From contig QPGO01000302.1 in assembly GCA_008632985.1 (NCBI GenBank), forward strand, positions 46,042 through 66,041: a stretch of 20,000 nucleotides of DNA. Reading direction: 5' to 3'. The stretch's first letter is position 1. The number at the start of each line of letters is the position of its first letter. The position numbers and the translations under genes were made by a program. The notes under the pieces were generated by a model. It was not told the origin of the DNA, ran no database searches, and saw nothing but the letters and a program-made list of their open reading frames with translations. Origin of the DNA: Psammoneis japonica (lineage: Eukaryota). Positions 3,648 to 20,000 of this stretch are shown here, one piece after another.

Positions 3648-5819
3648 GGTCGTCGGAGCTTCTGGCAGCAAGTAAGCAGTGGCAACAAATTTTGCTTCGG
3701 GCTGGCGCTGAACGAAGAAACTGTTCTGTGACTGCAACACGCGTTGGGACCTGGTACAAAACCTACGTGACAACCTCCCGTACAAGTGCACTGAACGAAC
3801 TAATATACTTATTGGGAACTAAAGGTGATAATTAGTGGGTCGGACAAACTGGCTGCCTTCAACTTGCGCGCGAAGTGTCAAGGCAATCAAATTACTATCC
3901 TCATCTTTGAATAACTGAATTTGGGCTGGAATGGGGTGCGTCAGCTATCGTCAGCCAACTGGTAGAAAGGTCGTAGAAATATACATACGTGTTTTATAGT
4001 ATGTGACATGTACGGCGCGAAAATGCACGCAGACGCGCAAGATTGCCAACGTCTTATGTGTGATGGGCTACTGTGCTTCAAAGGAACGTTGGGATCGTGC
4101 GTGGCGTGCGCATCGCACTGTGGTTGCGGTTGAGAATCCCCATGGGATTCCCGGCCACCGCCTCAGCGGATCAGCACCTCGATGACGTGCAACAGTGATC
4201 CACAGCACTGGATCTAAGGTGTGTGATAAACAGCAGTAGTTGCACCGTAGAAGCAGCAGCTGACAGGAACCCGGACATGCGAGTCTGAAGGTCTGTGCAG
4301 CAATGCAGCCTGGACAAAATGGAGGACATCCGGCACTGTGCCGAGAACAAACGTCACTTCACCCATTCCACCAGGCGGAGGAGCAACATACCCCGCAACC
4401 AACCCCCAGTGCTGGGCATGCTCAGCAGCAACCTCGAGACGCTCCTCTTCCTTCCGAGTGGGGGGGGCGGGGTGCCGCGGCGATCCCTTGACACAACGCC
4501 ACAAGTTGGTCGTTCGTCATGCCGCCATTGTTGCCAACACCGCCAACTGCCAACAGACGATCCGAGATGTCGAAACCATCAAAATCCGCAGCGTCATCCA
4601 TCTTGCTCGCATCAAACAAAGGGCTGCCCTTCGTGACCGAGCGCTCGTCGTTGTTTGCTGCAATGCATTGCATGCCACGCTTCCATGCAGCTCCCAGTGG
4701 GAAATCCGCACCCAACTCCGGAGTGGGCTCATCCACAGGAATGCCACTGGGGAAAGTCTTGCCTGGTGGCAAAGGCAGGAACAGCTTCAGAACAGAGATC
4801 TGAGGGTGGTCTTCCGCAGCCGCAGGTGGAGGGAAATGCAGACGCCCCACAGGTGCAACCCAGTCATCCTCCGGTGGAGTTGTTGGGCCGTCAACAGTGT
4901 CCGGCGCCTGATTGCGAAGTCATTGAAGCTTGAAAGGAGTTGAGAGCGACAGAGACTGGGGTGTGACTCCCAATCTCGTCCGACAAGCTCCCAATGACAG
5001 AGGTGGTCCCTTCCGTCGAAGCAAACACTTGAGGGCGGGTGAGAATCATGATCCACTTTGAGCAAACAAAGGCAAACTGGGTTGCTTTCATTGGATTGGA
5101 TGTGACAGTGTGGCGAACCTCATGGTTCACACCCGGTCGAAGCGTCGAAGCCAGTGCCATTGCATTCTCGTCTGAGAACGGAAACGCTGTTGTGTGGTGC
5201 TGGTCAGCAGCACCACGACCCTGCTGGACAGCAGCGGCGGAAGGAGCAAACACAGTCATTGAACAATGACTTCACAGACTCAGTGTAAATGGCTGACTTC
5301 GGAAATTGTGAGGAGCCACTCCCATGGGTTCCGGCCGTGAACTCTGCAGGTGGAGCATCCTGTCCACAACTTTGTGGTGTTTGATTCAGATTTTCAAAAT
5401 TTTCAATGGCTGCAAACAATGTGAACCGTGAACCCTGCATGACGGTTGCTCTCAAGCAGGCACCACTGGGGCTTGGAGGACCCATCATGCTCCGTGCCTG
5501 CATCGAAACATTCGTGGCTCGGACAGACATGTTGTGTGGTCGAGCGCTGAGCATGCAGGACCAGCAGTTGAACAACCAGCAAGAAACAGAGATGCCATTC
5601 TCAAGAGGCACACACACATGAACATGTTCACAATCCCACACTCGACGCGTTCCAGATGCAGGTGGGAATCCGTGTGACATTGGGCCCGCAGACTTCTGCG
5701 TGCGAGCTCCGCAGTAAAATCACACGGTGATTAAAATGTCAATGATCGCCAACAGAAAATGAGGCAATTTTGCGAATGCACAAACTCGCACATGATTGAA
5801 GTACATCATTTTTTACTTG

Positions 5820-6974: not shown

Positions 6975-9483
6975 CTATTGTTTTAGTTTGAATGTGCAGA
7001 ACTGACGATGCGTCGTTAAATCAACGGTATAGTCCGAACTAGTCAATACGCCACTTTCAATCTTTCGTGTCATCATATGAAGAAAGACGGAATTCCCAAC
7101 AGATACCTTTGCAAGACTTTTCAACTCCTCTGCACCAATGGGAGACAGGTCTAGTTGTGCTTGCAAGAGCTTGTCAACAGCTGCCTTGCTACGTTTGAAG
7201 CAGTCAGCGGCGGATGACAACAAATCGGTCTGCGTCACTTTGCTAAAGTCGGTGCCTTGTAGAAAGTCACTATACGATAGTGATGGTGGGTGAGGAATGA
7301 CTTGGAAAGCATCAAATTGTTTCTTGAATTTTTGCTCGGGTGACGTAAACTGGTATGTTTGGTGAGGCACAGCTTTCATTTGGTCTAGAGCGGTAATGAG
7401 CTATCGATACAGCGCGCAGAAACGATGCAAGGTTAGACTGGACTTGCGCCAGACATACATAAAGAATCACCGCAAAAAGGAATTGCAAAAGCTACTCACT
7501 CGAACGAGACCTCGACACAAATCTCGCCGCATTTGTACCAACACGATTTCAAATTCACTTCGCAAGTCCTGAGCCTCTTCTTCTTTTGTTTTCCCGTGAG
7601 TCTTTCTGCGTCCGGCGCCCTTCTTTTTACCCTTTTTCTGGGCTTCTGGTTGTGTCTTTTGTCGCCAAAGGGCTCTTGTCTGTTGAAACGAAACAATGCT
7701 GTTCAAAAGAGACGACAACAAAAAGTCTCTGTACCAATAAGCGGTCAACAACTCGCGGATTCCGCGAAAGAGTTCGAGCTCAATTCCAATGGCAAGGTGG
7801 CGATCCATGAGCGAGTTGGTTGTGCGAAGAATGTAGAGTGTAAAGATGGGAGGGGCGCTATCTGCACCATCACGCGCCCTGCTTTGTCCAAGGTCCACTG
7901 CATGCGCTTCTTGTTGTAGGGTTGCCCACTCTGGGAACATTACTGTGTCTATAAAAGCTCGTTGTCGATTCCGGTTCAAAAGAAATAGCTTGAGGGTATC
8001 GTAGATTGGTTTGGCTATACGACTCACAAAGGCTCGACAGTGGTGATTGTCAATGTCATTGAGTGGAACACCACTCGCTTCAACAATGTCTTGAGCAATA
8101 AGTGTTGTCACCACATGTTGACCCAAAAGAAGATCATCAAAATACAAGTAAAGAACTGATAGAGAGCGGCTGAGAATGTTCACCGACGAACTGGAGACGC
8201 GTTCCAACATGTCTCTGGTTCGACCCAGCGTCGTCCCTTTCAAAAGCAAGTCGCAAGCTACCCAGCTAACCTCAGATATAATTGTTTTGAGGGACCCGAG
8301 TGACTCTTTAGCAGATCGAAATATCGTTTTGCGGATAGGCGTGTTACCAACGAGGGGACGATTCACGTAGGGATCGAAGCACTTGGAGAGCAGCTGCTTT
8401 TCCGCGTCGCTGTACTCCGAAACGAATTTCTGCAGTTGGTCCATTTTCCTCTCTCCTAGAGCGATTATCGGCTTCGTTTTTGTGGCCACGTCACGCACTG
8501 TTGTCGCAGAAAGGCTTGTCTAGTTTCGCAGCGTTGCAGTCCACAAGCAATTGAGCTGTCTCGATACAACTATTTTCGAGAACACATTCATTTGTACTTA
8601 CCAACGGTAGACACGAACGAAGAAAGTCTAACAGAAATCCCAACACCAGTTTCACAACAGCACTGTTTGGATCGTCACCCACTAGAATAAGAGCATCATG
8701 AAGGGCATGAAGAGCGAATGCTTCGTCACCCTCGCCGAAAAAGTCTAGCAGTCCATAAGTATTCACTGAGAAATCTTCTTCCTCGTAAATGTCCGCATTG
8801 AAAGCAATGTTCTGAACGACAAAGGATATTGCTATCACACCTAATGCTGCTGCATAAACCACATGTTGTGCTGGAGTTGCGTTATTTGTCCCTGACTGGA
8901 TGACATGAGAGCGCCCATTCGTTCCGTCATGTCACCACCGGCACAATGAATTTGCATCTCTCTCACCACTTCAGCGTGCGTATACAAACAGCTAAAGGTG
9001 CTTTCACACACAGATGCACCACTCAGAAGTGATTCTAACCTTGTCAGTATCTCCAAACAAATGATTTCGGCTTCCTTCATTGTGAGTGATTCCCACGGCA
9101 AATTCTCGAGTCCTGTCGGTGTTGGTCGGGGCGGAACAGTTTGTTCACTAGATGCTTTCGTCGTATCATAAGCTGAAATGGGAAGTTCACAACAGTCAAG
9201 TTTTCGATCCATGAGCACAAGGGCAGTCATACTTGTGTGTAGGCTTTGGAGGAAGAGAGGCGTCTGCGTAAGTGTTTTACCACAACGAGGAAAATACCGT
9301 GACCGCGAGACATGCAACATACCTGAAATCATCACCACAGAGGAATGGATCTGACACCGATAAGGATGATGCGCATGATTCTACCACAGATGTGATATCT
9401 ACCCAGTTATCGCTGTCTTTAGAAACGTCGCTTTTCTTTTCGTCTCCGTCGCCACCGTTCAGCAACCCCGGCTCCGTCGTCAT
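6975..9483 (-). CDS. NAA35: N-alpha-acetyltransferase 35, NatC auxiliary subunit (MAK10)
   Basis: Family motifs WVDITS..SLHTSMTALVLMDRKLD, LSGASVCESTFSCLYTH, ADIYEEEDF, FDPYVNRPL, NRNRQR, GIELELF..AYWYRDFL. ATG at 9483; GT-AG introns 9244-9322, 8520-8601 and 7401-7499 restore frame. One unresolved frame change near 8860-8970. Confidence 0.9.
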
Positions 9484-9715: not shown

Positions 9716-11054
9716 ATGACGATGGGATTGCCCTCCCGCGATGTCAAAGCCAGCTCAATTGGATTGTTTCTCTTGATAGGGACTGGTCAACTCTTGTCTC
9801 TAGTTCTTGCCTTCCCGACTAGATTTTCAAAGCCTTTTGGCGGGAGCGTTTCATGTCGTTCGTTTGTTTCTCAATCGAAAATTGCCTTGAGTTCAGTTGA
9901 AACAGTATCTTCGAATGAAGATCTTTTGCCAGGAATTGAAGCTATCGATTCTATGAATGCGGATCTGCGTGAAAGCCTTGAGTTGTTGCGCAATCAGCCC
10001 TACTTTCGCCTCTATAGTATTGACATGTTAGCCAGCTGTGAGTACTTACCACAAGAGCTGTTTGAGTGCTACAGCGAACGTTGCGAGATCTACCCAGTGG
10101 ATGAAGAAGAAGTGAGTATCGTGCTTCCATCCCTGTTCTATGCAATGATATGTGTTTACAGTAGTTATTTTTAACCAGATGATGATTTGCTCATGCCTGA
10201 ATGCGTAGATACCGACTGATATGAAAGATGTAGACGCAGATGAACATGATTTTGAGTTGGACGGTTGGGCTCGATGGGACATGCCAACTGATGACTACTA
10301 TGACATTGAACAGTTCCCAGAAGGCTACACAGGATACGACGGATCAGATATATGGCGCTTCATTCACGATCGGATTGCTTTTGAAGGCTACGAATACGAT
10401 GATGATCATTGGAAGGCAGACTTCAACAAAGCTGTTTCGGGTTTGCATTCAATGATATCAGCTCAGGTCGTTAGAGGAATCCAAGACAAGATCGACAGTG
10501 GCGAAGAATTTACAGATGAGGAAATATGGCGTGATGCAGACGCAGAGTTTGAACGGCGTCTTGGTCAAGGTGGTGAGACCCCTCTGGCTATTGAGAACCT
10601 TTATTTCTGCTACATGCTTTTGCTTACCGGAGCGTCAAAGGCGAGAGACCGATTGTTGCAAGACTGTGATTCTGGAAAGATTGATGCAGATGCTGCCTCG
10701 GCTTTGAGGCCTGTTTTGTCAAGCGAATTACTTGATCACCCTTCTGTTGGAGTTGCGTACGCAAAGCTTCATGATCACGCTGTGAAGGACTCAGACTCCA
10801 AGGCTGCCTTGTGGGAGGCGCGGCTTCGAACAAGGGAACTAGTTCGGATCATGAATTGCGTTCAGTGCAACAAGTGCCGCCTTCACGGCAAAATATCCGG
10901 CATGGGACTGTCTACTGCACTACAGCTGAGCCTTGGCTTCACCGGAGAAGGTGGCGATGCGACGCGTGTTCATCGGGTGGAGCTCGCGTGTCTGATGGCT
11001 ACTCTCGATAAGTTCTCGAAGGCAATCGAAACATGTCAACGAATGCGTTCTTAA
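9716..11054 (+). CDS. ERO1: Ero1-like FAD-dependent thiol oxidase, 2 exons (intron 10112-10208)
   Basis: YFRLYSID..CEYLPQELFECYSERCEI (outer cysteines), PEGYTGYDG..IWRFI, VSGLHSMIS, IENLYF, IMNCVQCNKCRLHGK..GLSTAL (CxxCxxC). GTGAGT..TAG intron joins the two ORFs in frame. N-terminal signal-like peptide. Confidence 0.9.
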
Positions 11055-11482: not shown

Positions 11483-13556
11483 TTAACCTGCAGTGTACGC
11501 AGGCGATCCGTTGAAACTGTCGGAACTAGGTTTTGGAGCTTGTATCTGTGAAGCGGAAGTGCTTTCGGTCTTGACAAGATCTGCGGTCGCAGGGATTGGA
11601 TTGCTTGAATCGAACGGAGAAGCTGGATTTCGGACCAACGTCACACAGAAACACTTAGCAATCCCATCGTCTCCCTTGATAAGAGAGACACAAAGACCAA
11701 GGTCATCTCGATCCTTCATCGATCCTCTGAGCAAACATGTTCTTTGACCTTGAGCCTTGGCATTAGAAGGCGGTGAAATCATTTGACTGATGAGGTCAAA
11801 CGCATTCTGTAGATCTTGACGACTTGTCAGGTTGAAGACAGTCATGGCACAAACTTCCTGCTTCGTGTAACCGGACAACGAACAGAAGAGTTCGTTGCAG
11901 TCGATAAAAGCACCGCCCATTGACGCAATCGCCTGATTAATTCGAAAGAAAGACAAACGGTTAATGCCCGGATTGATGAAATTGCGAAAATCGGACGATG
12001 GATTTTGGGACAATGTACCCTAACTTACCATACCCACTGAACATGAATTGAAGACAAACCGATATTCATGCTCTGCGATGTTTGACACCAACAAAGTATC
12101 ATCCTGTCGGTCGTCTTTGGGGTTACCAGGGTCATCGCCACCTCCACTACTCGTGTCCGGCTGTGCAAGAACAAGATAAACGGTCAGCAAAATATATCTG
12201 AATACAAATATTCCGCGCAGGAATCAGATACGTACCTGCTGATAAAAGCTCATAGCTGATTTCGGTGGCACACCACCGAAGTTTCCAAGAGACCAAACAC
12301 CATTCTGAGCCGCAACGTGCCGTACAGCCTTGGCCGCTTGCGGACCCAGTGCACCGCCTCCAATCATCTGTAGCTGCTGAATCAACTGATGCCGATCTCT
12401 ACTCACAATCAAAGCAGAGGAGGCGGAAAAGCAAGTTCAGAAAAGAATCCTTTCCAAAGGGAACTGAAATCGGCACTTCTCGGCACTTACATTTCGGATT
12501 TGTATTGATGCTGCTGCAGCATTCTGATGTAGTTGGCAGCTTCCGTCAACACCGAGCTTTTCGTTCCTTTGGGAACTATGACGCCACCACTAGATAAGAG
12601 GTTCCGAAGCTCGTTGATTTGTCGAGATATACGGAAACTCCTCTCCTTCTCGCGTGCATTTCGTTCCTCTCTCTTCTGTTCGTCAAGGTGCTTTCCTTTC
12701 TTAGCTTTGCCTTTCGCTGACTTTGCAGCTCCCGAATCCTTGGTCGCAGAGTTCGTCGCCCCTGAACTATTGGCGCGCGAAGATGGCGCACTGTCCGGGA
12801 TTTTGGTCTTTGCGTTCTTCCGACCACGTGAGGACTTTGCCTCATCGTCGTCGCTGTTGTACCCACCACTGTCGTTGTCTGACTCTCCGTTGTCTCTAGT
12901 GCGGCGCTTCTTTCCAGATAGTTGGCGAGTCCCTGAATTATTTGTACGACGAAAGAAGAGATTGAGTTAGTCACATGCATAAGCGTGCAGAAAATGAGCC
13001 TTTCGGGTTGCGAAAGACATTCACTCCATTCGTTACCTTGTTTGTTTTGGACTTGCGTCGAATCTGCCGCAGAGCTAGGCTTCTGATTCTTTCCACCTCT
13101 GTTGGCTGAGTTAATCGGTGATTTTGGCAGAAGGTTTGGAGTAGCAGCGATAGGTCCTTTCGGGGCAGTCCCTGCTGATGCCCGAGGTGAATATGTGCTT
13201 GCTTTTCTCCCACCATCGCTATCGCTTTCTCCGTTCTTCGCGTCAATCTCAGAAGCCTGAAGCGATACTCCGTTCAGCATGGCTTCCTCGCTATCGAAAT
13301 TGAATCCAAATGTATTATTTCCCAAACTAAGAATGCCTGAGTTGTCTGAGTTGTTCCCGCTGCCTCCGCCACTTGAGTTACTGCCAACGCCGCTCCCATC
13401 TCTCTTCAAGGTACGATCTTTAGTCGCTCCATTTGATGGCTTTGAACCTGCATCCGCGGCTGCAACTTTCTCCTTTGCGTCTGATATTTTTTCTTGGCTG
13501 TTTCGCGGGGGCGGTGCTTCTGAACTACTTTTCATTGATAGTCCGCCTTTGTCCAT
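11483..13556 (-). CDS. bHLH-PAS transcription factor (diatom family that includes RITMO1), 5 exons
   Basis: Introns 12933-13036, 12399-12490, 12161-12235 and 11933-12028 (all GT-AG) give one frame. bHLH: KREERNAREKERSFRISRQINELRNLL..KGTKSSVLTEAANYIRMLQ. PAS: YRFVFNSCSVGMAIASMGGAFIDCNELFCSLSGYTKQEV..TVFNLT. Confidence 0.9.
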
Positions 13557-13693: not shown

Positions 13694-14408
13694 GTTTCGA
13701 CAGGATGAAGAACAATATGCACGTAGCAACACGTACGCCAGTACCAAGCAACACTCCCGCCAACACAGCCACCGCTGAAAACAAAGACGATGACGACAAG
13801 AAAGCGTGCTTTTAATCGCTTCGATAACACACGATTTCACGTTGTCACTCACTTCTTTCCTTTATCGATGATTTTCTCAATACGATGTGAATTCCCAACG
13901 GGTCAAACCTGGGTGAGGTGACATGTATTAGCGACCGGCTCTGTCTCTGTTGAACTTCTTTGCCTCTTTCTTTCTCTCGTATTTTTTGTGCGGTGTTGTG
14001 TGACGACAGCACTTCTTGTTCGAAAATATATTTATATTTGTATATGTTTATAATTTCATTCAGTATTCAGTCATTAATATTCATAAGAAGTACGTCACCC
14101 GTCTCTGACGAATATGATGACGTTATCACTTATGACCGTGTCATTTTATTTATTCCATGGTAAAACGTGAAAAAGTTCCCGCCAAAACTAACAGATAGCC
14201 CTGCTTATTATTTACGAGCTCGAATTTGCACAGACATGCTCCAGAGCGTGTCTGTGCATTTACGTAGATTTTGTACCAGTCGCATCGTAGAGTGATGTTG
14301 TTCGCCTGCCCCAACGAACTCTTTCTCGTACATAAAATATTACTCACGCCTGCCGGATAGGTTGGAGGTACATTTTCCTGGTACAAACACGTAGAATTTA
14401 ACGCAGCT

Positions 14409-14479
14409 GCAGTGACCCTCGTTTTGGGGGGTCACTGCACGCGCGGTGGCAGTGACCCTCGTTTTGGGGGGTCACTGCA
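14409..14479. repeat. Two identical 31-bp hairpin-forming direct repeats, period 40 bp
   Basis: GCAGTGACCCTCGTTTTGGGGGGTCACTGCA at 14409-14439 and 14449-14479; each has a GCAGTGACCC/GGGTCACTGC stem. Confidence 0.95.
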
Positions 14480-15260
14480 TAAGCAGGGATAGTGGCGCGA
14501 CCGAAAGACCACAGTCATCTTTAATCTACTCTACTATCGTTCTCTATCTCTCTCTACTAGGAGTACCGGTAGGGGGCCTTTCTACAGTAGCTACAGTAGA
14601 GAGTAGAGCCTCTGCGTACTCTCTCTAGCTACGGTAGCTCACTGCTCTAGTAGCTGGCAGCTCTCTGCTCTAGAGAGTGGAGCTAGAGTGCCTTAGTAAG
14701 GAGAGGAGTGCATGCAAGAGAGCTGCCATACTACTAGCTAGCTAGATTCCCTACTTGACCAAGAGGAGAAAAGCATGGTTAACACCATCTGCATTGCAGC
14801 AGTTTCTGCTGAGCGTGATTGCGCTGGTTCGCCGGGACCAGGTTTCTCACAAACAAAGAACTGGGACTTCCGAGCGGGAGACTAAGTGTAGCGAAAACTG
14901 GTACAGTGCCGAAGGAGTCCTCACTCTGGAGATATCGACAAGGTTCAAGGTGGTGGTGGACCAACACGCGCTTCAACCATTGTTTTGCACGAGTGCTGCA
15001 GCATGCAGGTGCTCGTTGAGTGAGTATGGTAGTCGGTGGAATGCGAAAGCATGCGCGATCTTCACCCCGGCTCACGCACGATCGGGTGACTCAACACTCA
15101 ACCAAATGAAGACATTCGATGGGTCAAGCGACTGTACATTGTCACTTCAAATAGGTACGACGTCGATTTTAAAAGATATATCCATTGGCCTGAGAAAGAA
15201 AAGGGTGCGATTATGACAGACAACCAGCAAGATTCGGTAGCCGCTGACCAACGACCAAGC

Positions 15261-16076
15261 ATGGCAAAGAAAAGAAGCAGCTTGTTCAGTCGAGCAAGGC
15301 AGAGTTTCTACAGGTGCGTCGATGTTGTTGGTAAACATTGACAACTAACGAGCACGTCAGATCTGGAGTTTTCTGTTGTCGGATATCCCTGATTGCGTTC
15401 TTTCTCTGTTCGTGCTCTTTCAGATCTGGGGGGAAGAAAGGTGCCAGCGTGGAAACCCTTCGCGGAAACAAAGGTGCTGATTTTGAAGGGCACGCCCGAG
15501 TGAAACGGGGGAAGACAAGAGGCTTAGGTTGCTCATGCTTTGGTGGAAAGGAGGTAAGGCATTACGAGTCTCCTTCAACCTTTACCGCCAAATTTCTGGC
15601 AGGTCGAGTCGTCCCACATACTTTACTCTCCTCGCCTCTTTGCACAGGAAAAAGATCGTTTTATACTCATCAAAGGGCATTTCTGCTTCGTTTTCTCAGA
15701 CGAAGATGCGAAGTCGCCCAAGTATGCCATCGATCTCACACATAGAAAAGCTTCGATTCAAGAAGCATCAAGGGATGGTAAAACGGTTGTTCTATTAGAG
15801 ACAGGCCTCGGTGATGTGGATTACGAATTTGTGTTCGACACCAAGCAGGACAAAAATATTGCAAAGAAGTTTTCTAGCGCCGTCGGAGAAGAAGCTGCTC
15901 GAGCGGAAGCAGAACTTGTGAAAAAGCGTCTCGGCCACGAGCACTTGATGAAGACCCGGCCCTCTGTCAGATACGCGGAGAAGATTGGCGAGAAGAAAGT
16001 TGAGAGTCAACCTGATGCTCCTGTAACAGCTGCCGAAATTGCTGATGCCTCTCCACTGCCGATGAATGCTATCTAA
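15261..16076 (+). CDS. Small hypothetical protein, possible PH-like fold, 3 exons (introns 15314-15423, 15554-15647)
   Basis: Splicing gives MAKKRSSLFSRARQSFYRSGGKKG..DFEGHARVKRG..GGKE/EKDRFILIKGHFCFVFSDEDAKSPKYAIDL..VVLLETGLGDVDYEFVF..PMNAI*. The RFxLxxxxxxxF..P...I.L pattern resembles PH-domain beta strands. Confidence 0.7.
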
Positions 16077-16971: not shown

Positions 16972-17522
16972 GGTGATGCGGTGGCCGAAAGGAGGGAGGA
17001 AGATGGTAACAACAGAGCAAGAGTTTTACTACCGGGATGCTGTCAGCGACGGCAGAAGGCCGAAGGCCGGCCGCCGCCGAAGCCCGAAGCTGAAATGAAA
17101 AACGATGAGCGCGACAAACGTGCCGTGCCAGGGGCAGACGTTGTGTTCAAAAGCCAACTAAAAAACAAATTGGTTCCTCCTCCTCTTTTAGGTGGAACTC
17201 TCTAGATAGATCGAAGTCTGAAACCGAAAGATTTTGGATTGCCGCCCTCGCTACTATCAGAAAATAGAGCCATGACGATTGCCTGCACCAATCATTTTGC
17301 TGCATTTTGCGCCGGGCGTTCGAATTAATTGTGACACATGACGGTCATTTCGGTGCGCACTTTTGCGCGACCCACGCGACATGACTAACATGCGTTAGTG
17401 CGTGGTGCTGGTTGTTTTGCTTCTGACCGTTCTGTCTTCTGTGAGGTTTCATGAGGCTGTCTGTGCACATTGATGTTGTCCAGTTGTGCATGTTGATGTT
17501 GTCTGAGGCAAGCTGCATTGGA

Positions 17523-18096
17523 TCAAGTGAACGTGGAAATGTGCGAAATTTGCGCATTGTTGCAGTTTCTTTGCCAAACAGCCAGTCCTTGTTCATGGCC
17601 ACACTCAATCCACGGCGGCTTAAGTGAAAGTCCATGTGCATGTGTTTTGCGCATTGATGCAGTTGTCTTTGCTGAGTGGTTGTTTGCAACTTGCTCAATT
17701 CCATCACCTCTGGCCACACTTCTTCTGAAGGGACTTTGCTTGCTCCTTCTCCTGCTCCGCCATCTCCTCCTCGGTGAAAAATCTCCCCGACCGCTGTGGA
17801 ATCGCCGCTGCACATGCTGCCTTCAGCTCCTCCATGGTTGAATCATCCTTGGGCGCGACCGTTGTTTCCACATGATGACTGTCCGCTGTCGTGTTGTCTT
17901 GCACAAGTGCAGAAGTGACATCAAAATTTCCCGAGGCAAGGTCAAACGCCGCTCTTGCTTCTTCCAAGGTAATCTCCTCTTTGTCTTCCTCACTCATCAA
18001 TGACTGAAGAAGTTCCGCATGTGTCTGCACCTTTTTCTTGTCCTCACCAGTTTTCTTTGGCTCGTCTGCCTTCTTTGTTTGTTGTTGCAAATCCAT
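17523..18096 (-). pseudogene. Degenerate accessory ORF downstream of the helicase, with a UBA-like segment
   Basis: Charged ORF MDLQQQTKK..ITLEEARAAFDLASGNFDVTSALV.. with no Tyr, apparently continuing in another frame (KPPWIECGHEQGLAVWQRNC). Confidence 0.4.
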
Positions 18097-18230
18097 GTTT
18101 TCTCCATTGCTGCGTTTTCTGTGACGGCTGCGTTCGCGTTTCTTGGTTTGTTGGTTAAAATCCGTTCGACGTTGTGTGACGCATGTGCAGATTTCCATGC
18201 AATGTGCTGATCTAATTGAAACATTTTGTT

Positions 18231-19939
18231 TTACGAAATTTCCGCATTTTTGCGGTTGGGGTCGCCAAACAGTTGTGCAGTGGTTGAGCATCCTAATCTA
18301 ATGTTTGTGCACCACATTGACATTTCTGTGCACTGTTGCTGAGAAAAATGCATGGCGCTTCTCTCCTTCATGAGTCTTGTCAAGGCTTTGCAGCCTTCTG
18401 GGACCTTGCATTTTCGCAGGTCCTTGCTCAGTGGCTTTCGCATGAACAGCCCTTCTCTGGTCTTTACTCTGGAGAGCACAACATGCACCCAATTCTGAGT
18501 GCAGCTCCAAGAGTGTGCAAACAACTGCGGGACTCCACTCCCTTGCAGTTTGTGCCCTGCAGTGGCATTGTTGATGACAAACGGCAGCTGGGTTGCCTTC
18601 AGTTGGAAAGTGTGCCTTTGTTCATCGCCTTCTTCTAAAATTAGGCTGGGCTTGGCGATGCAAGCCCTGAAAGCATTTGTTTTTGGCTCAACTAAAAACT
18701 TCGCGGGGTCGATGCTTTTGTTGCAGTGTTCCAATGCAACGTGGTCCACCTGACTGGCAAGTGCAGCAGGAATGCCAATGTTGTTGTCTAAAGTCACTGG
18801 TCTTGGTTCCTGTCCTGGTTTGAGAACGACCTTGTCAACAGTGGCTTGCGTTCCGTTTGCTTGACCGTTTGCCACATTTTCGTTGAAAGGTGTCATGACT
18901 CTGCATCTTCTGTAAATTCGTAAGACTGGATCCATTCTTCCTGATTGCATGACAACGTCTCCTTCACCACAGTTGTTCCAGAAGCTGTTGCAAACCGGAA
19001 ATGGTTGGCAGAGTCTCGTGCCATTCTGCACCTGCAAGTCGTCACTGAAAATCAACATTGAGTCAAGGACATCTCCATCTCTTCTGTGCAGTGTTTCTGC
19101 TCTTTTTTCGAACAGGCCAGTGTCAATTGCATCTCTGTCCTCATTTGCGCACACAGCACAGCGGAGGTCACTGGGCAGATCATCTTCATTCTGAACTGCT
19201 CGTTCGTTGATGTGCTCCATGTCGTCAACTGCAATCTTGCCAGTGCGGAATCTCTTGAGCAGTTTTCCCCATGATGGATCGTCTTTGAACCTGTGTGCAC
19301 CACGAAGTTCCATGCAGCAGTTGATCCACTCGTGAAACTCGGGACATGCATCTTTGTGTGGTGGTTTCACTCCTTTTCCAACTGGCTCTAGTTGCCTGAG
19401 GTCACCTGCGAGAACAATGTTGATGCCACCGTGCGGCTTGCTTGGTTCGCTCTTCAATGCTGTTAAATTCTCATGGAGTTTTTCTAGTTCTCTCTTGCTT
19501 GCAAAAGAAATCTCGTCCACCACCAAAAGTCTCGTGTCTGACCATGCTTCAATTTGCTCTTCGGTTGTTTGCTTTCTTCTCATGAGGCATGCAACTTGGT
19601 GGATTGTGTCCCTTTGAGAACAGTCGCAGCCACTCTGGTCAGTGCAGTCACTCTGATTGTGCTTGTTGTGAACGGCTGCTCAATGAGCGAGCAATGCTCT
19701 CTTCCGCACTCCACGACGAGGTCCATTGTGGTTGATTTGCCACTTCCACCTGCACCATGTAAAAAACACACAAGTTGCAATGTTCTGCGTCTTTGCACTT
19801 CCACGAGTTTCTTCAATCGGCGAAGGTTTGTTGCCAAATTCGTGTCTGCCATTTCTCCTGTTGAGTCATTGTGTGACGTCTCATCTTGAAGAGCGTCTTG
19901 GCAGCAAGTGAGCACAAAGGTTCCTGCTAGAAAAAGCAC
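18231..19939 (-). pseudogene. PIF1-family (SF1B) DNA helicase, degenerate and frameshifted at ~19610
   Basis: Walker A LHGAGGSGKST, Ia VTALTRVAA, Ib G/DTIH split by a 1-nt frameshift in the G run, Walker B LLVVDEISF, III GGINIVLAGDLRQLEPV, IV HRFKDD..LLKRFRTG, V QLPF..ATAGHKLQG, VI VHVVLSRVKTREGL. Confidence 0.9.
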
Positions 19940-20000
19940 GCTGCTGTTGCCTCCAGTCTTGCTTTCCTAGCCCAGTCTACGTGCGCTTGCTGCAGATCCG

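Follow-up and report, generated by a model that had tools for sequence, protein, structure and literature searches.

Erasure of TpA with a T-A-Y flank preference in a dead Helitron copy of Psammoneis japonica and in environmental relatives

Introduction

Repeat-induced point mutation (RIP), known from ascomycete fungi, turns C into T, chiefly in CpA, and so produces TpA. Adenine deaminases of the TadA/ADAT type target A34 after U33. As for hypermutation directed at TpA itself, it has been described so far in one 2026 preprint and in one alga, Bigelowiella natans, in a text that leaves the enzyme unidentified (Mettrop et al., bioRxiv 10.64898/2026.01.13.699255). The preprint reports A>G/T>C changes at TpA only in mutation accumulation (MA) lines, gives integrated viral and other foreign DNA as targets, proposes an ADAT2-like deaminase, and describes a class of TpA-poor, CpA+TpG-rich coding sequences enriched in transposon-type Pfam domains; flank analysis is absent from its main text. 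TadA/ADAT enzymes edit position 34 of tRNA (PMC10661471), and early TadA-derived DNA editors had a strict 5' pyrimidine requirement and preferred YAC (PMC7056309). Among the best 20 of 266 full-text literature matches, the B. natans preprint being one of them, there was no description of TpA loss in diatoms. The locus considered here lies in a stretch of 20,000 nucleotides from the eukaryote Psammoneis japonica (assembly GCA_008632985.1, contig QPGO01000302.1, positions 46,042 to 66,041 of the forward strand), called the window below. Near its right end lies a dead Helitron, one copy of many, in which TpA has been converted to TpG or CpA, and CpG loss to the same products accompanies this erasure, more weakly.

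Replacement of TpA by TpG and CpA in two repeat islands

Two blocks of the window, island 1 and island 2 (Table 1), are poor in TpA. The observed/expected ratio (o/e) of TpA is 0.50 over the whole window and about 0.4-0.7 in the genes between the islands; in 17385-19980, the part of island 2 covered by an earlier, sequence-only assessment (the original prediction), it is 0.14, with TG at 1.56, CA at 1.68 and CG at 0.60. Expressed as strand-symmetric rho, both islands against the rest of the window, TA is 0.11 versus 0.60, CG 0.67 versus 0.97 and CA/TG 1.58 versus 1.12; AA/TT (1.24 versus 1.14), AT, GA/TC, AC/GT and AG/CT are unchanged, and the only dinucleotides lowered are TA and CG. The DNA of the islands holds about 120 TG+CA per kb.

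Regarding the copy number, contigs of a DNA sequencing run, whose source is apparently the same organism, were placed on the window, where unique DNA has a depth of ~62. The unique contigs stop at 4162 and 17206, and the islands begin ~90-120 bp from there; the summed contig depth is ~290-340 over most of island 1 and 3900-4500 over island 2, far above that of unique DNA, and therefore both islands lie in repeated DNA. The boundary of the second repeat is near 17207, and by depth the Helitron amounts to ~70 copy-equivalents.

The direction of the change is given by conserved residues. The window helicase was aligned with 43 homologues (alignment A1); in the nine columns whose consensus is Tyr, the window has five Cys, three His and one Tyr, and with the upstream helicase piece included, 11 conserved Tyr have become six Cys and four His, with one kept. 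Other residue types with at least four consensus columns in A1 are kept in 40-100% of their columns. Three Val>Ala changes by GTA>GCA are compatible with TA>CA, and Thr>Ala, Asn>Asp and Met>Val behind codons ending in T are also compatible with TA>CA/TG.

The copies themselves differ by transitions at 408 of 495 places. Details were taken from 40 of 496 differing places, with the polarity set by majority: seven repeat places among those 40 read TG/CA here and TA in the other copies, and two read TG here and CA elsewhere, while among the best-supported differing places 14 have TG/CA here versus CG in the other copies. Other copies also retain ATA/TAT at 4264, 5268 and 17644, where the window copy reads TG/CA. 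The excess of TG/CA is fed by two processes, TpA erasure and an ordinary-looking CpG decay; for the latter YCGR is the most depleted flank class, unlike for TpA, and because the flank profiles differ, nothing points to an agent that reads TA and CG alike.

Which TpA survive

The segment 17385-19980 contains exactly 23 TpA, namely nine CTAA/TTAG, four CTAG, three TTAA, six GTAA/TTAC and one CTAC (at 19978); YTAR makes up 16 of the 23, and none is ATA/TAT or GTAC. These predicted counts were reproduced exactly, as was the placement of the last Tyr of the helicase and of ORF 5204-5680 in ATTTACA, the codon being TAC in both (Table 1). Pooling the two islands gives 27 TpA, which were compared with two baselines, the 15.8 kb of the window outside the islands (630 TpA) and 62 related loci of the same family from metagenomes (7514 TpA). 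Against the first, YTAR is over-represented (17/27 in the islands, 137/630 elsewhere; Fisher p 8e-6) and ATA/TAT is nearly absent (1/27 versus 273/630; p 1e-5). Survival relative to the window baseline is 0.57 for TTAA, 0.53 for CTAA/TTAG, 0.42 for GTAA/TTAC and 0.32 for CTAG, and it is at most 0.05 for ATAA, ATAC, ATAG, ATAT, CTAC/GTAG and GTAC.

Poisson models were fitted in which each of the two strands adds its own flank term to the loss rate of a TpA. Uniform loss across contexts, the outcome that the original prediction had set against itself, is rejected with the window baseline (deviance 47.3, df 9, p 3e-7) and with the 62 loci (deviance 50.9, p 7e-8). A purine/pyrimidine model gives exponents of 0.34-0.38 for TAR and 1.9-2.0 for TAY with both baselines, so that TAY, the predicted preferred target, is lost faster, by a factor of ~5-6; this model still misfits (p 0.003, window baseline). 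When each of the four bases has its own term, the exponents with the window baseline are A 0.08, G 0.70, C 1.34 and T 3.54, and the model fits (p 0.08); with the 62 loci as baseline they are A 0.30, G 0.40, C 1.40 and T 3.71. This four-base model beats the purine/pyrimidine version (LR, likelihood ratio, 11.7, 2 df), with a residual misfit of p 0.06-0.08. Statistically, the loss on each strand depends on which base follows the A (T >> C > G > A), and RTAY vanishes first while YTAR and TTAC persist because each strand contributes by its own 3' base.

Under this graded rule TTAC is the slowest Tyr context, and therefore no separate exception for TTAC, as had been proposed, is needed; for GTAA/TTAC the graded model expects 4.6 survivors and 8 are observed. 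The proposed protection by a 5' T/A tract receives exploratory support, since W precedes the surviving TTAC in 16 of 17 cases (7/8 in the window, 9/9 in the other loci) versus 560/964 in the baseline (p 0.002).

The survivors might, of course, say little about the process, if they reflected the original composition, selection, or TpA regrown from CA/TG by C>T. One of the 23 is the stop codon of the helicase, regrowth must occur given the density of TG+CA, and the baselines only stand in for the ancestors. The window background and the 62 family loci nevertheless give the same result, other copies keep ATA/TAT at the three positions given above, selection is unlikely on a copy with a frameshift and changed catalytic residues, and the Tyr-codon test described below is independent of survivor composition; uninformative survivors are thus very improbable.

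TpA-erased Helitron loci in metagenomes

Searching metagenome contigs with alignment A1 yielded 66 related loci, 62 of which have a TA o/e of 0.32-0.98; the Helitron family is therefore not intrinsically TA-poor. The remaining four are TA-erased, with o/e of 0.02 (L010), 0.05 (L049), 0.07 (L048) and 0.13 (L033); they are 36-49% identical to the window helicase, no close nucleotide relatives of them were found, and their CpG values (0.02-0.30) are lower than those of the window islands (0.67). L010 has an ORF for a RepHel protein (fused Rep and helicase) of 1423 codons with no stop and a single Tyr, versus 39-50 in its relatives. In its 29 consensus-Tyr columns there are 15 Cys, seven His, four Phe, one Asp, one Gly and one Tyr, and the remaining Tyr codon is T|TAC, again in TTAC.

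The 40 TpA that survive in the four loci repeat the pattern of the window in weaker form. Uniform loss is rejected (p 0.003), RTAY accounts for 2/40 versus 30% in the baseline and YTAR for 13/40 versus 18% (p 0.04), and the fitted exponents, A 0.72 < G 0.93 < C 1.52 < T 1.77, have the same rank as in the window. As for the T-A-T half-sites that do survive (4389 in the window, others in L033, L048 and L049), 11 of 14 are TATG, that is CATA on the other strand, versus 28% in the baseline (p 1e-4, exploratory); descent of these TATG from TACG beside a methylated CpG is one possibility.

Three further sets of metagenome sequences belong beside these loci. Close pairs of the non-erased loci show no clear +1 bias (C 33, T 35, G 20, A 35) in 123 TA<>TG/CA differences among 913 counted, with 443 adjacent differences skipped, and these differences are probably ordinary divergence in the hosts of these loci. 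Two metagenome proteins, P0004 and P0053, have 0.2% Tyr and 5-7% Cys+His, as does the window helicase, and by their composition are probably TA-erased copies too. Finally, a more distant helicase element is present in three copies at least 99.4% identical (L059, L060 and L061), whose differences are mostly TA<>TG/CA and CG<>TG/CA (21/27 and 13/18 counted); polarisation with the three copies gives seven TA losses versus five gains, which is ambiguous, and the element may represent an early stage of TpA erasure and CpG decay in another organism.

A strand-specific motif

Counts that are symmetric between the strands leave two readings, a 3' pyrimidine that favours the adjoining A or a 5' purine that favours the adjoining T of the same strand. 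Sites with one favourable flank tell which strand is read, because the two strands then leave different products: YTGY/RCAR results from a change on the T-A-Y strand, RTGR/YCAY from a change on the other. After subtraction of CpG-derived products, YTGY/RCAR exceeds RTGR/YCAY by 93:37 in the islands of the window and by 101:29 in the four erased loci, hence 2.5-3.5 to 1 toward the TAY strand (2.7:1 with the window baseline).

Tyr codons provide an internal control, in that the coding strand always reads T-A-Y and the preceding base sets the other strand: a preceding Y makes it T-A-R, and a preceding R makes both strands T-A-Y. Codons preceded by Y have become Cys 16 times and His twice (window 2:0, L010 11:2, three small loci 3:0; binomial p 0.0013), and codons preceded by R have become Cys nine times and His 11 times (window 4:4, L010 4:5, three small loci 1:2; p 0.82), a contrast with a Fisher p of 0.006. 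Statistically, then, at sites with one favourable flank the A:T pair of the strand that reads T-A-Y changes, and at RTAY the two strands change equally; the counts support T-A-Y>T-G-Y on either strand as the motif, with no coding-strand bias at symmetric sites. Equal hits at symmetric sites argue against action on the sense transcript or on a one-strand rolling-circle intermediate.

The same counts bear on two other explanations. The flank bias could arise in repair, if a lesion formed at any TpA and was removed better in TAA/TAG than in TAT/TAC, for instance by hypoxanthine excision or mismatch correction. The data are net fixed changes only, and repair that depends on context would be expected to produce a ranking in four grades instead of a motif that is either hit or not; against this, 16 of 18 Tyr-codon changes at YTAY are on the T-A-Y strand, for which an enzyme reading a single strand is the simplest account, and repair as the source of the bias is improbable.

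Activities already known to mutate A in other settings, DNA polymerase eta (Pol eta) or RNA edited by ADAR in double-stranded form and copied back to DNA, would both give A>G. The Pol eta motif is WA, with A mutated after A or T, and AA/TT should be depleted too, whereas AA/TT is at 1.24 versus 1.14 in the islands and at 1.22 versus 1.13 in the four erased loci; the dinucleotide values already exclude the polymerase, ahead of the flank context that had been put forward as a possible discriminator of mechanisms. ADAR prefers 5'-UAG on double-stranded RNA (PMC10661471), and TAG is among the slowest contexts here; moreover, the element is a DNA transposon, and the symmetric sites are hit equally on both strands (9:11). 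Either activity is hardly credible as the agent.

Proposed mechanism

The reading judged somewhat more probable than its rejection is a TpA-directed hypermutation of the B. natans type, carried out by a TadA/ADAT-type adenine deaminase and directed at silenced repeats. The enzyme, which as on tRNA would require a 5' U/T, would convert adenine to hypoxanthine; the strand counts point to resident double-stranded DNA as the substrate, with both strands attacked. The flank rule comes from the counts; the deaminase is what we infer from them. T-A-Y on one strand is R-T-A on its partner, so the context alone cannot tell an attack on A from an attack on T: of the predicted target, A in T-A-Y on either strand, the T-A-Y motif stands and the A as the attacked base does not follow from it.

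For this reason a thymine-directed process has to be weighed, in which the T of 5'-R-T-A-3' would be modified on either strand, for instance by a TET/JBP-type oxidation, with 5-hydroxymethyl- or 5-formyluracil mispairing with G and T>C as the outcome. All flank, product and Tyr counts fit it equally, and TpA is palindromic like CpG, with both erased to the same products, as suits a symmetric base modification. Precedents for such a modification exist: base J replaces T before A in the telomere repeats of trypanosomes, and the hydroxymethyluracil of dinoflagellates is enriched at TpA. On the other side, the CpG flank profile described above does not point to a reader common to TA and CG, and the sole published proposal, that of the B. 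natans preprint, is an adenine deaminase; the thymine route is unlikely, with a real chance of being right.

Several observations weigh against the T-A-Y rule, or against the TadA/ADAT-type deaminase as its agent. In the four environmental loci the TAY/TAR contrast is only ~2-fold, and ATA/TAT-type contexts supply 13 of the 40 survivors; with the ATAC at 4389 in island 1, this ends the absence of ATA/TAT as a general rule. YTAR and TTAC had been called spared, which holds in the sense of a slower loss and not of immunity: YTAR is at ~46% of baseline, and sites of the TTAA and CTAA kinds have changed, with N154D (T|AAC>GAC) and 4262 (CTAA>CTGA) as YTAR examples. Three Ile>Met changes at ATA|G, provided that they started from an ATA codon, would have struck the TAR strand, and in the copy comparison six events at one-flank sites fall on the TAR strand versus three on the TAY strand, at sites that are slow ones by construction and with 9-11 events, too few and too biased for rates. 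The baselines are proxies for the real ancestors, and the gain in products balances the deficits only roughly. As for the enzyme, TAT is the fastest context and not the TAC of native TadA, so the UACG of TadA is not the best match. Finally, the sequences display fixed differences only, and an enzyme, a lesion or ongoing mutation would have to be read through them.

A broader proposal is that a dedicated reader of T-A-Y on both strands of silenced double-stranded DNA, either an adenine deaminase of the TadA/ADAT line or a modifier of the thymine in R-T-A, would act with CpG methylation decay to erase the two palindromic YpR steps, TA and CG, from transposons without creating stops, as a widespread defence in environmental protists. 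The occurrence of four TA-erased Helitron loci in unrelated metagenome samples suggests such a spread among protists; the proposal as a whole is tentative, and we would sooner expect it to fail than to hold.

The Helitron copy and other features of the window

Helitrons end in 5'-TC and CTRR-3', with a hairpin near the 3' end, and code for a RepHel protein, whose PIF1-family helicase is shared by island 2. The full-length relatives from metagenomes join Helitron_like_N and PIF1 within one ORF of more than 1400 codons, and it is on this ground that island 2 is taken as the helicase end of a Helitron; the Rep domain (PF14214) was found in L009, L003 and L010, and the Rep part of the window copy would sit past the window end. 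The window helicase has 77 homologues at ~50% identity, mostly metagenomic, with one source-labelled as the diatom Attheya; the best are at most 62% identical. The copy is open but, judged from its reading frame and residues, dead: compared with other copies, which carry one more C behind 19609, the window copy is frameshifted, and the invariant N154 and T342 are D and A. Long ORFs are expected in the islands because TA>TG/CA changes make no stop codons. A 48-nt motif occurs inside the Helitron in three diverged copies (60-71% identity), at 17520-17567, 17617-17664 and 18210-18257, downstream of the helicase ORF and overlapping its end.

Table 1. Coordinates of the islands, open reading frames and genes of the window
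Feature	Position	Strand	Remarks
TA-poor island 1	4249-5801	.	repeat without family label, ~5 copy-equivalents; 4 TpA in 1553 bp
Survivors in island 1	ATAC 4389, GTAA 5286, GTAA 5715, TTAA 5732		
ORF in island 1	4338-4943		single match, repetitive, E 2e-9
ORF in island 1	5204-5680	-	no homologue found
Sole Tyr codon of ORF 5204-5680	5285-5287	-	TAC after T (TTAC); context CATTTACA
NAA35-like protein	7467-8498	-	eukaryotic gene
ERO1	10221-11054	+	eukaryotic gene
TA-poor island 2	17327-20000	.	multi-copy Helitron fragment, continues past window end; 23 TpA
Palindrome CTAACATGCGTTAG	17385-17398	.	carries surviving TpA at 17386 and 17396
ORF P0002, 195 aa	17704-18291	-	Lys/Glu-rich, downstream of helicase; no family match
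PIF1-like helicase ORF P0001, 450 aa	18231-19583	-	Pfam PF05970, E 2e-12
Helicase stop codon TAA	18231-18233	-	one of the 23 TpA
Sole remaining helicase Tyr codon	18912-18914	-	TAC after T (TTAC); context AATTTACA
Upstream helicase piece (P-loop region)	19580-19939	-	other frame; 2 more conserved Tyr changed, 1 Cys and 1 His

As for island 1, none of its ORFs matched a Pfam family. One contig of the DNA run, with a depth of 60, runs from 4177 straight to 6360, with just the two letters AG in between; a form without the block of island 1 exists in the same data, whether as an empty allele or as a paralogous site. The segment 5337-6003 is a very high-copy repeat (depth ~69,000 versus 62), in which TpA depletion is intermediate (o/e 0.35-0.40). 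Another repeat, at 14229-14461, is short, has a depth of ~875 and is TA-rich (o/e 1.1-1.4), hence not TA-erased; repetition alone may be insufficient for erasure, or this element may be too short or too young. Two 40-nt tandem units lie at 14402-14481, each of which forms a hairpin.

A second run, X2, looks like RNA: its contigs jump GT..AG / CT..AC intervals between 9782 and 16898 (for example 10112-10208, 11932-12027 and 15311-15420), which locates introns in ERO1 and the genes around it. Neither island is covered by X2 contigs, which is not evidence of silence.

Meaning and comparison with known systems

New here are the fitted four-step order of the flanks, its recurrence in the four Helitron loci from metagenomes and the comparison of Cys with His outcomes at Tyr codons. 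The order TAT >> TAC > TAG > TAA, with a strict 5' T and on both strands, is a biochemical fingerprint against which candidate deaminases or thymine modifiers can be held, and it predicts which flanks should prevail among the ~230 de novo mutations that the B. natans preprint places in its supplement. The signature extends to Helitrons and to environmental DNA of several samples, and it explains the long, misleading ORFs of dead elements, with little Tyr and much Cys and His.

Compared with the systems introduced at the beginning, RIP is alike in being confined to repeats and in killing transposons by dinucleotide-directed transitions, and it differs in direction: here TpA is destroyed, CpA/TpG are created and ORFs stay open. 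RIP was rejected as a candidate, as C>T at CpA is not what the islands display, with TpA 5-fold depleted and CpA/TpG enriched. Decay of CpG by methylation and deamination matches the lowered CpG of the islands and the 14 places with TG/CA against CG, but such decay is unable to take away TpA and counts as a companion of an ordinary kind.

The TadA/ADAT enzymes share with the process seen here a target A after T, and a 3' pyrimidine is favoured here too; it is TpA that is lost, not CpA, ApA or GpA. They differ on two points, since a 5' T is obligatory here (CpA accumulates) and a 3' T beats a 3' C, which comes second with 1.3-1.5 versus 1.8-3.7 for T. The link to these enzymes may be taken as a resemblance only.

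The closest system is that of B. natans, in which, according to the preprint, near-exclusive A>G/T>C changes at TpA are found in confined blocks beside normal neighbouring genes. The same traits are found here: Tyr has become Cys or His in 10 of 11 cases in the window and in 22 of 29 in L010, only CG is lowered besides TA, and the islands begin near the ends of the unique contigs. The difference is one of stage and of host, as the preprint describes live mutation in chlorarachniophyte MA lines, with a moderate depletion of TpA (rho 0.45) in the region derived from nucleocytoplasmic large DNA viruses (NCLDV), whereas in the window the signature is a fossil one, close to saturation (rho ~0.1), carried by a Helitron of a different eukaryote in which CpG is lost as well.

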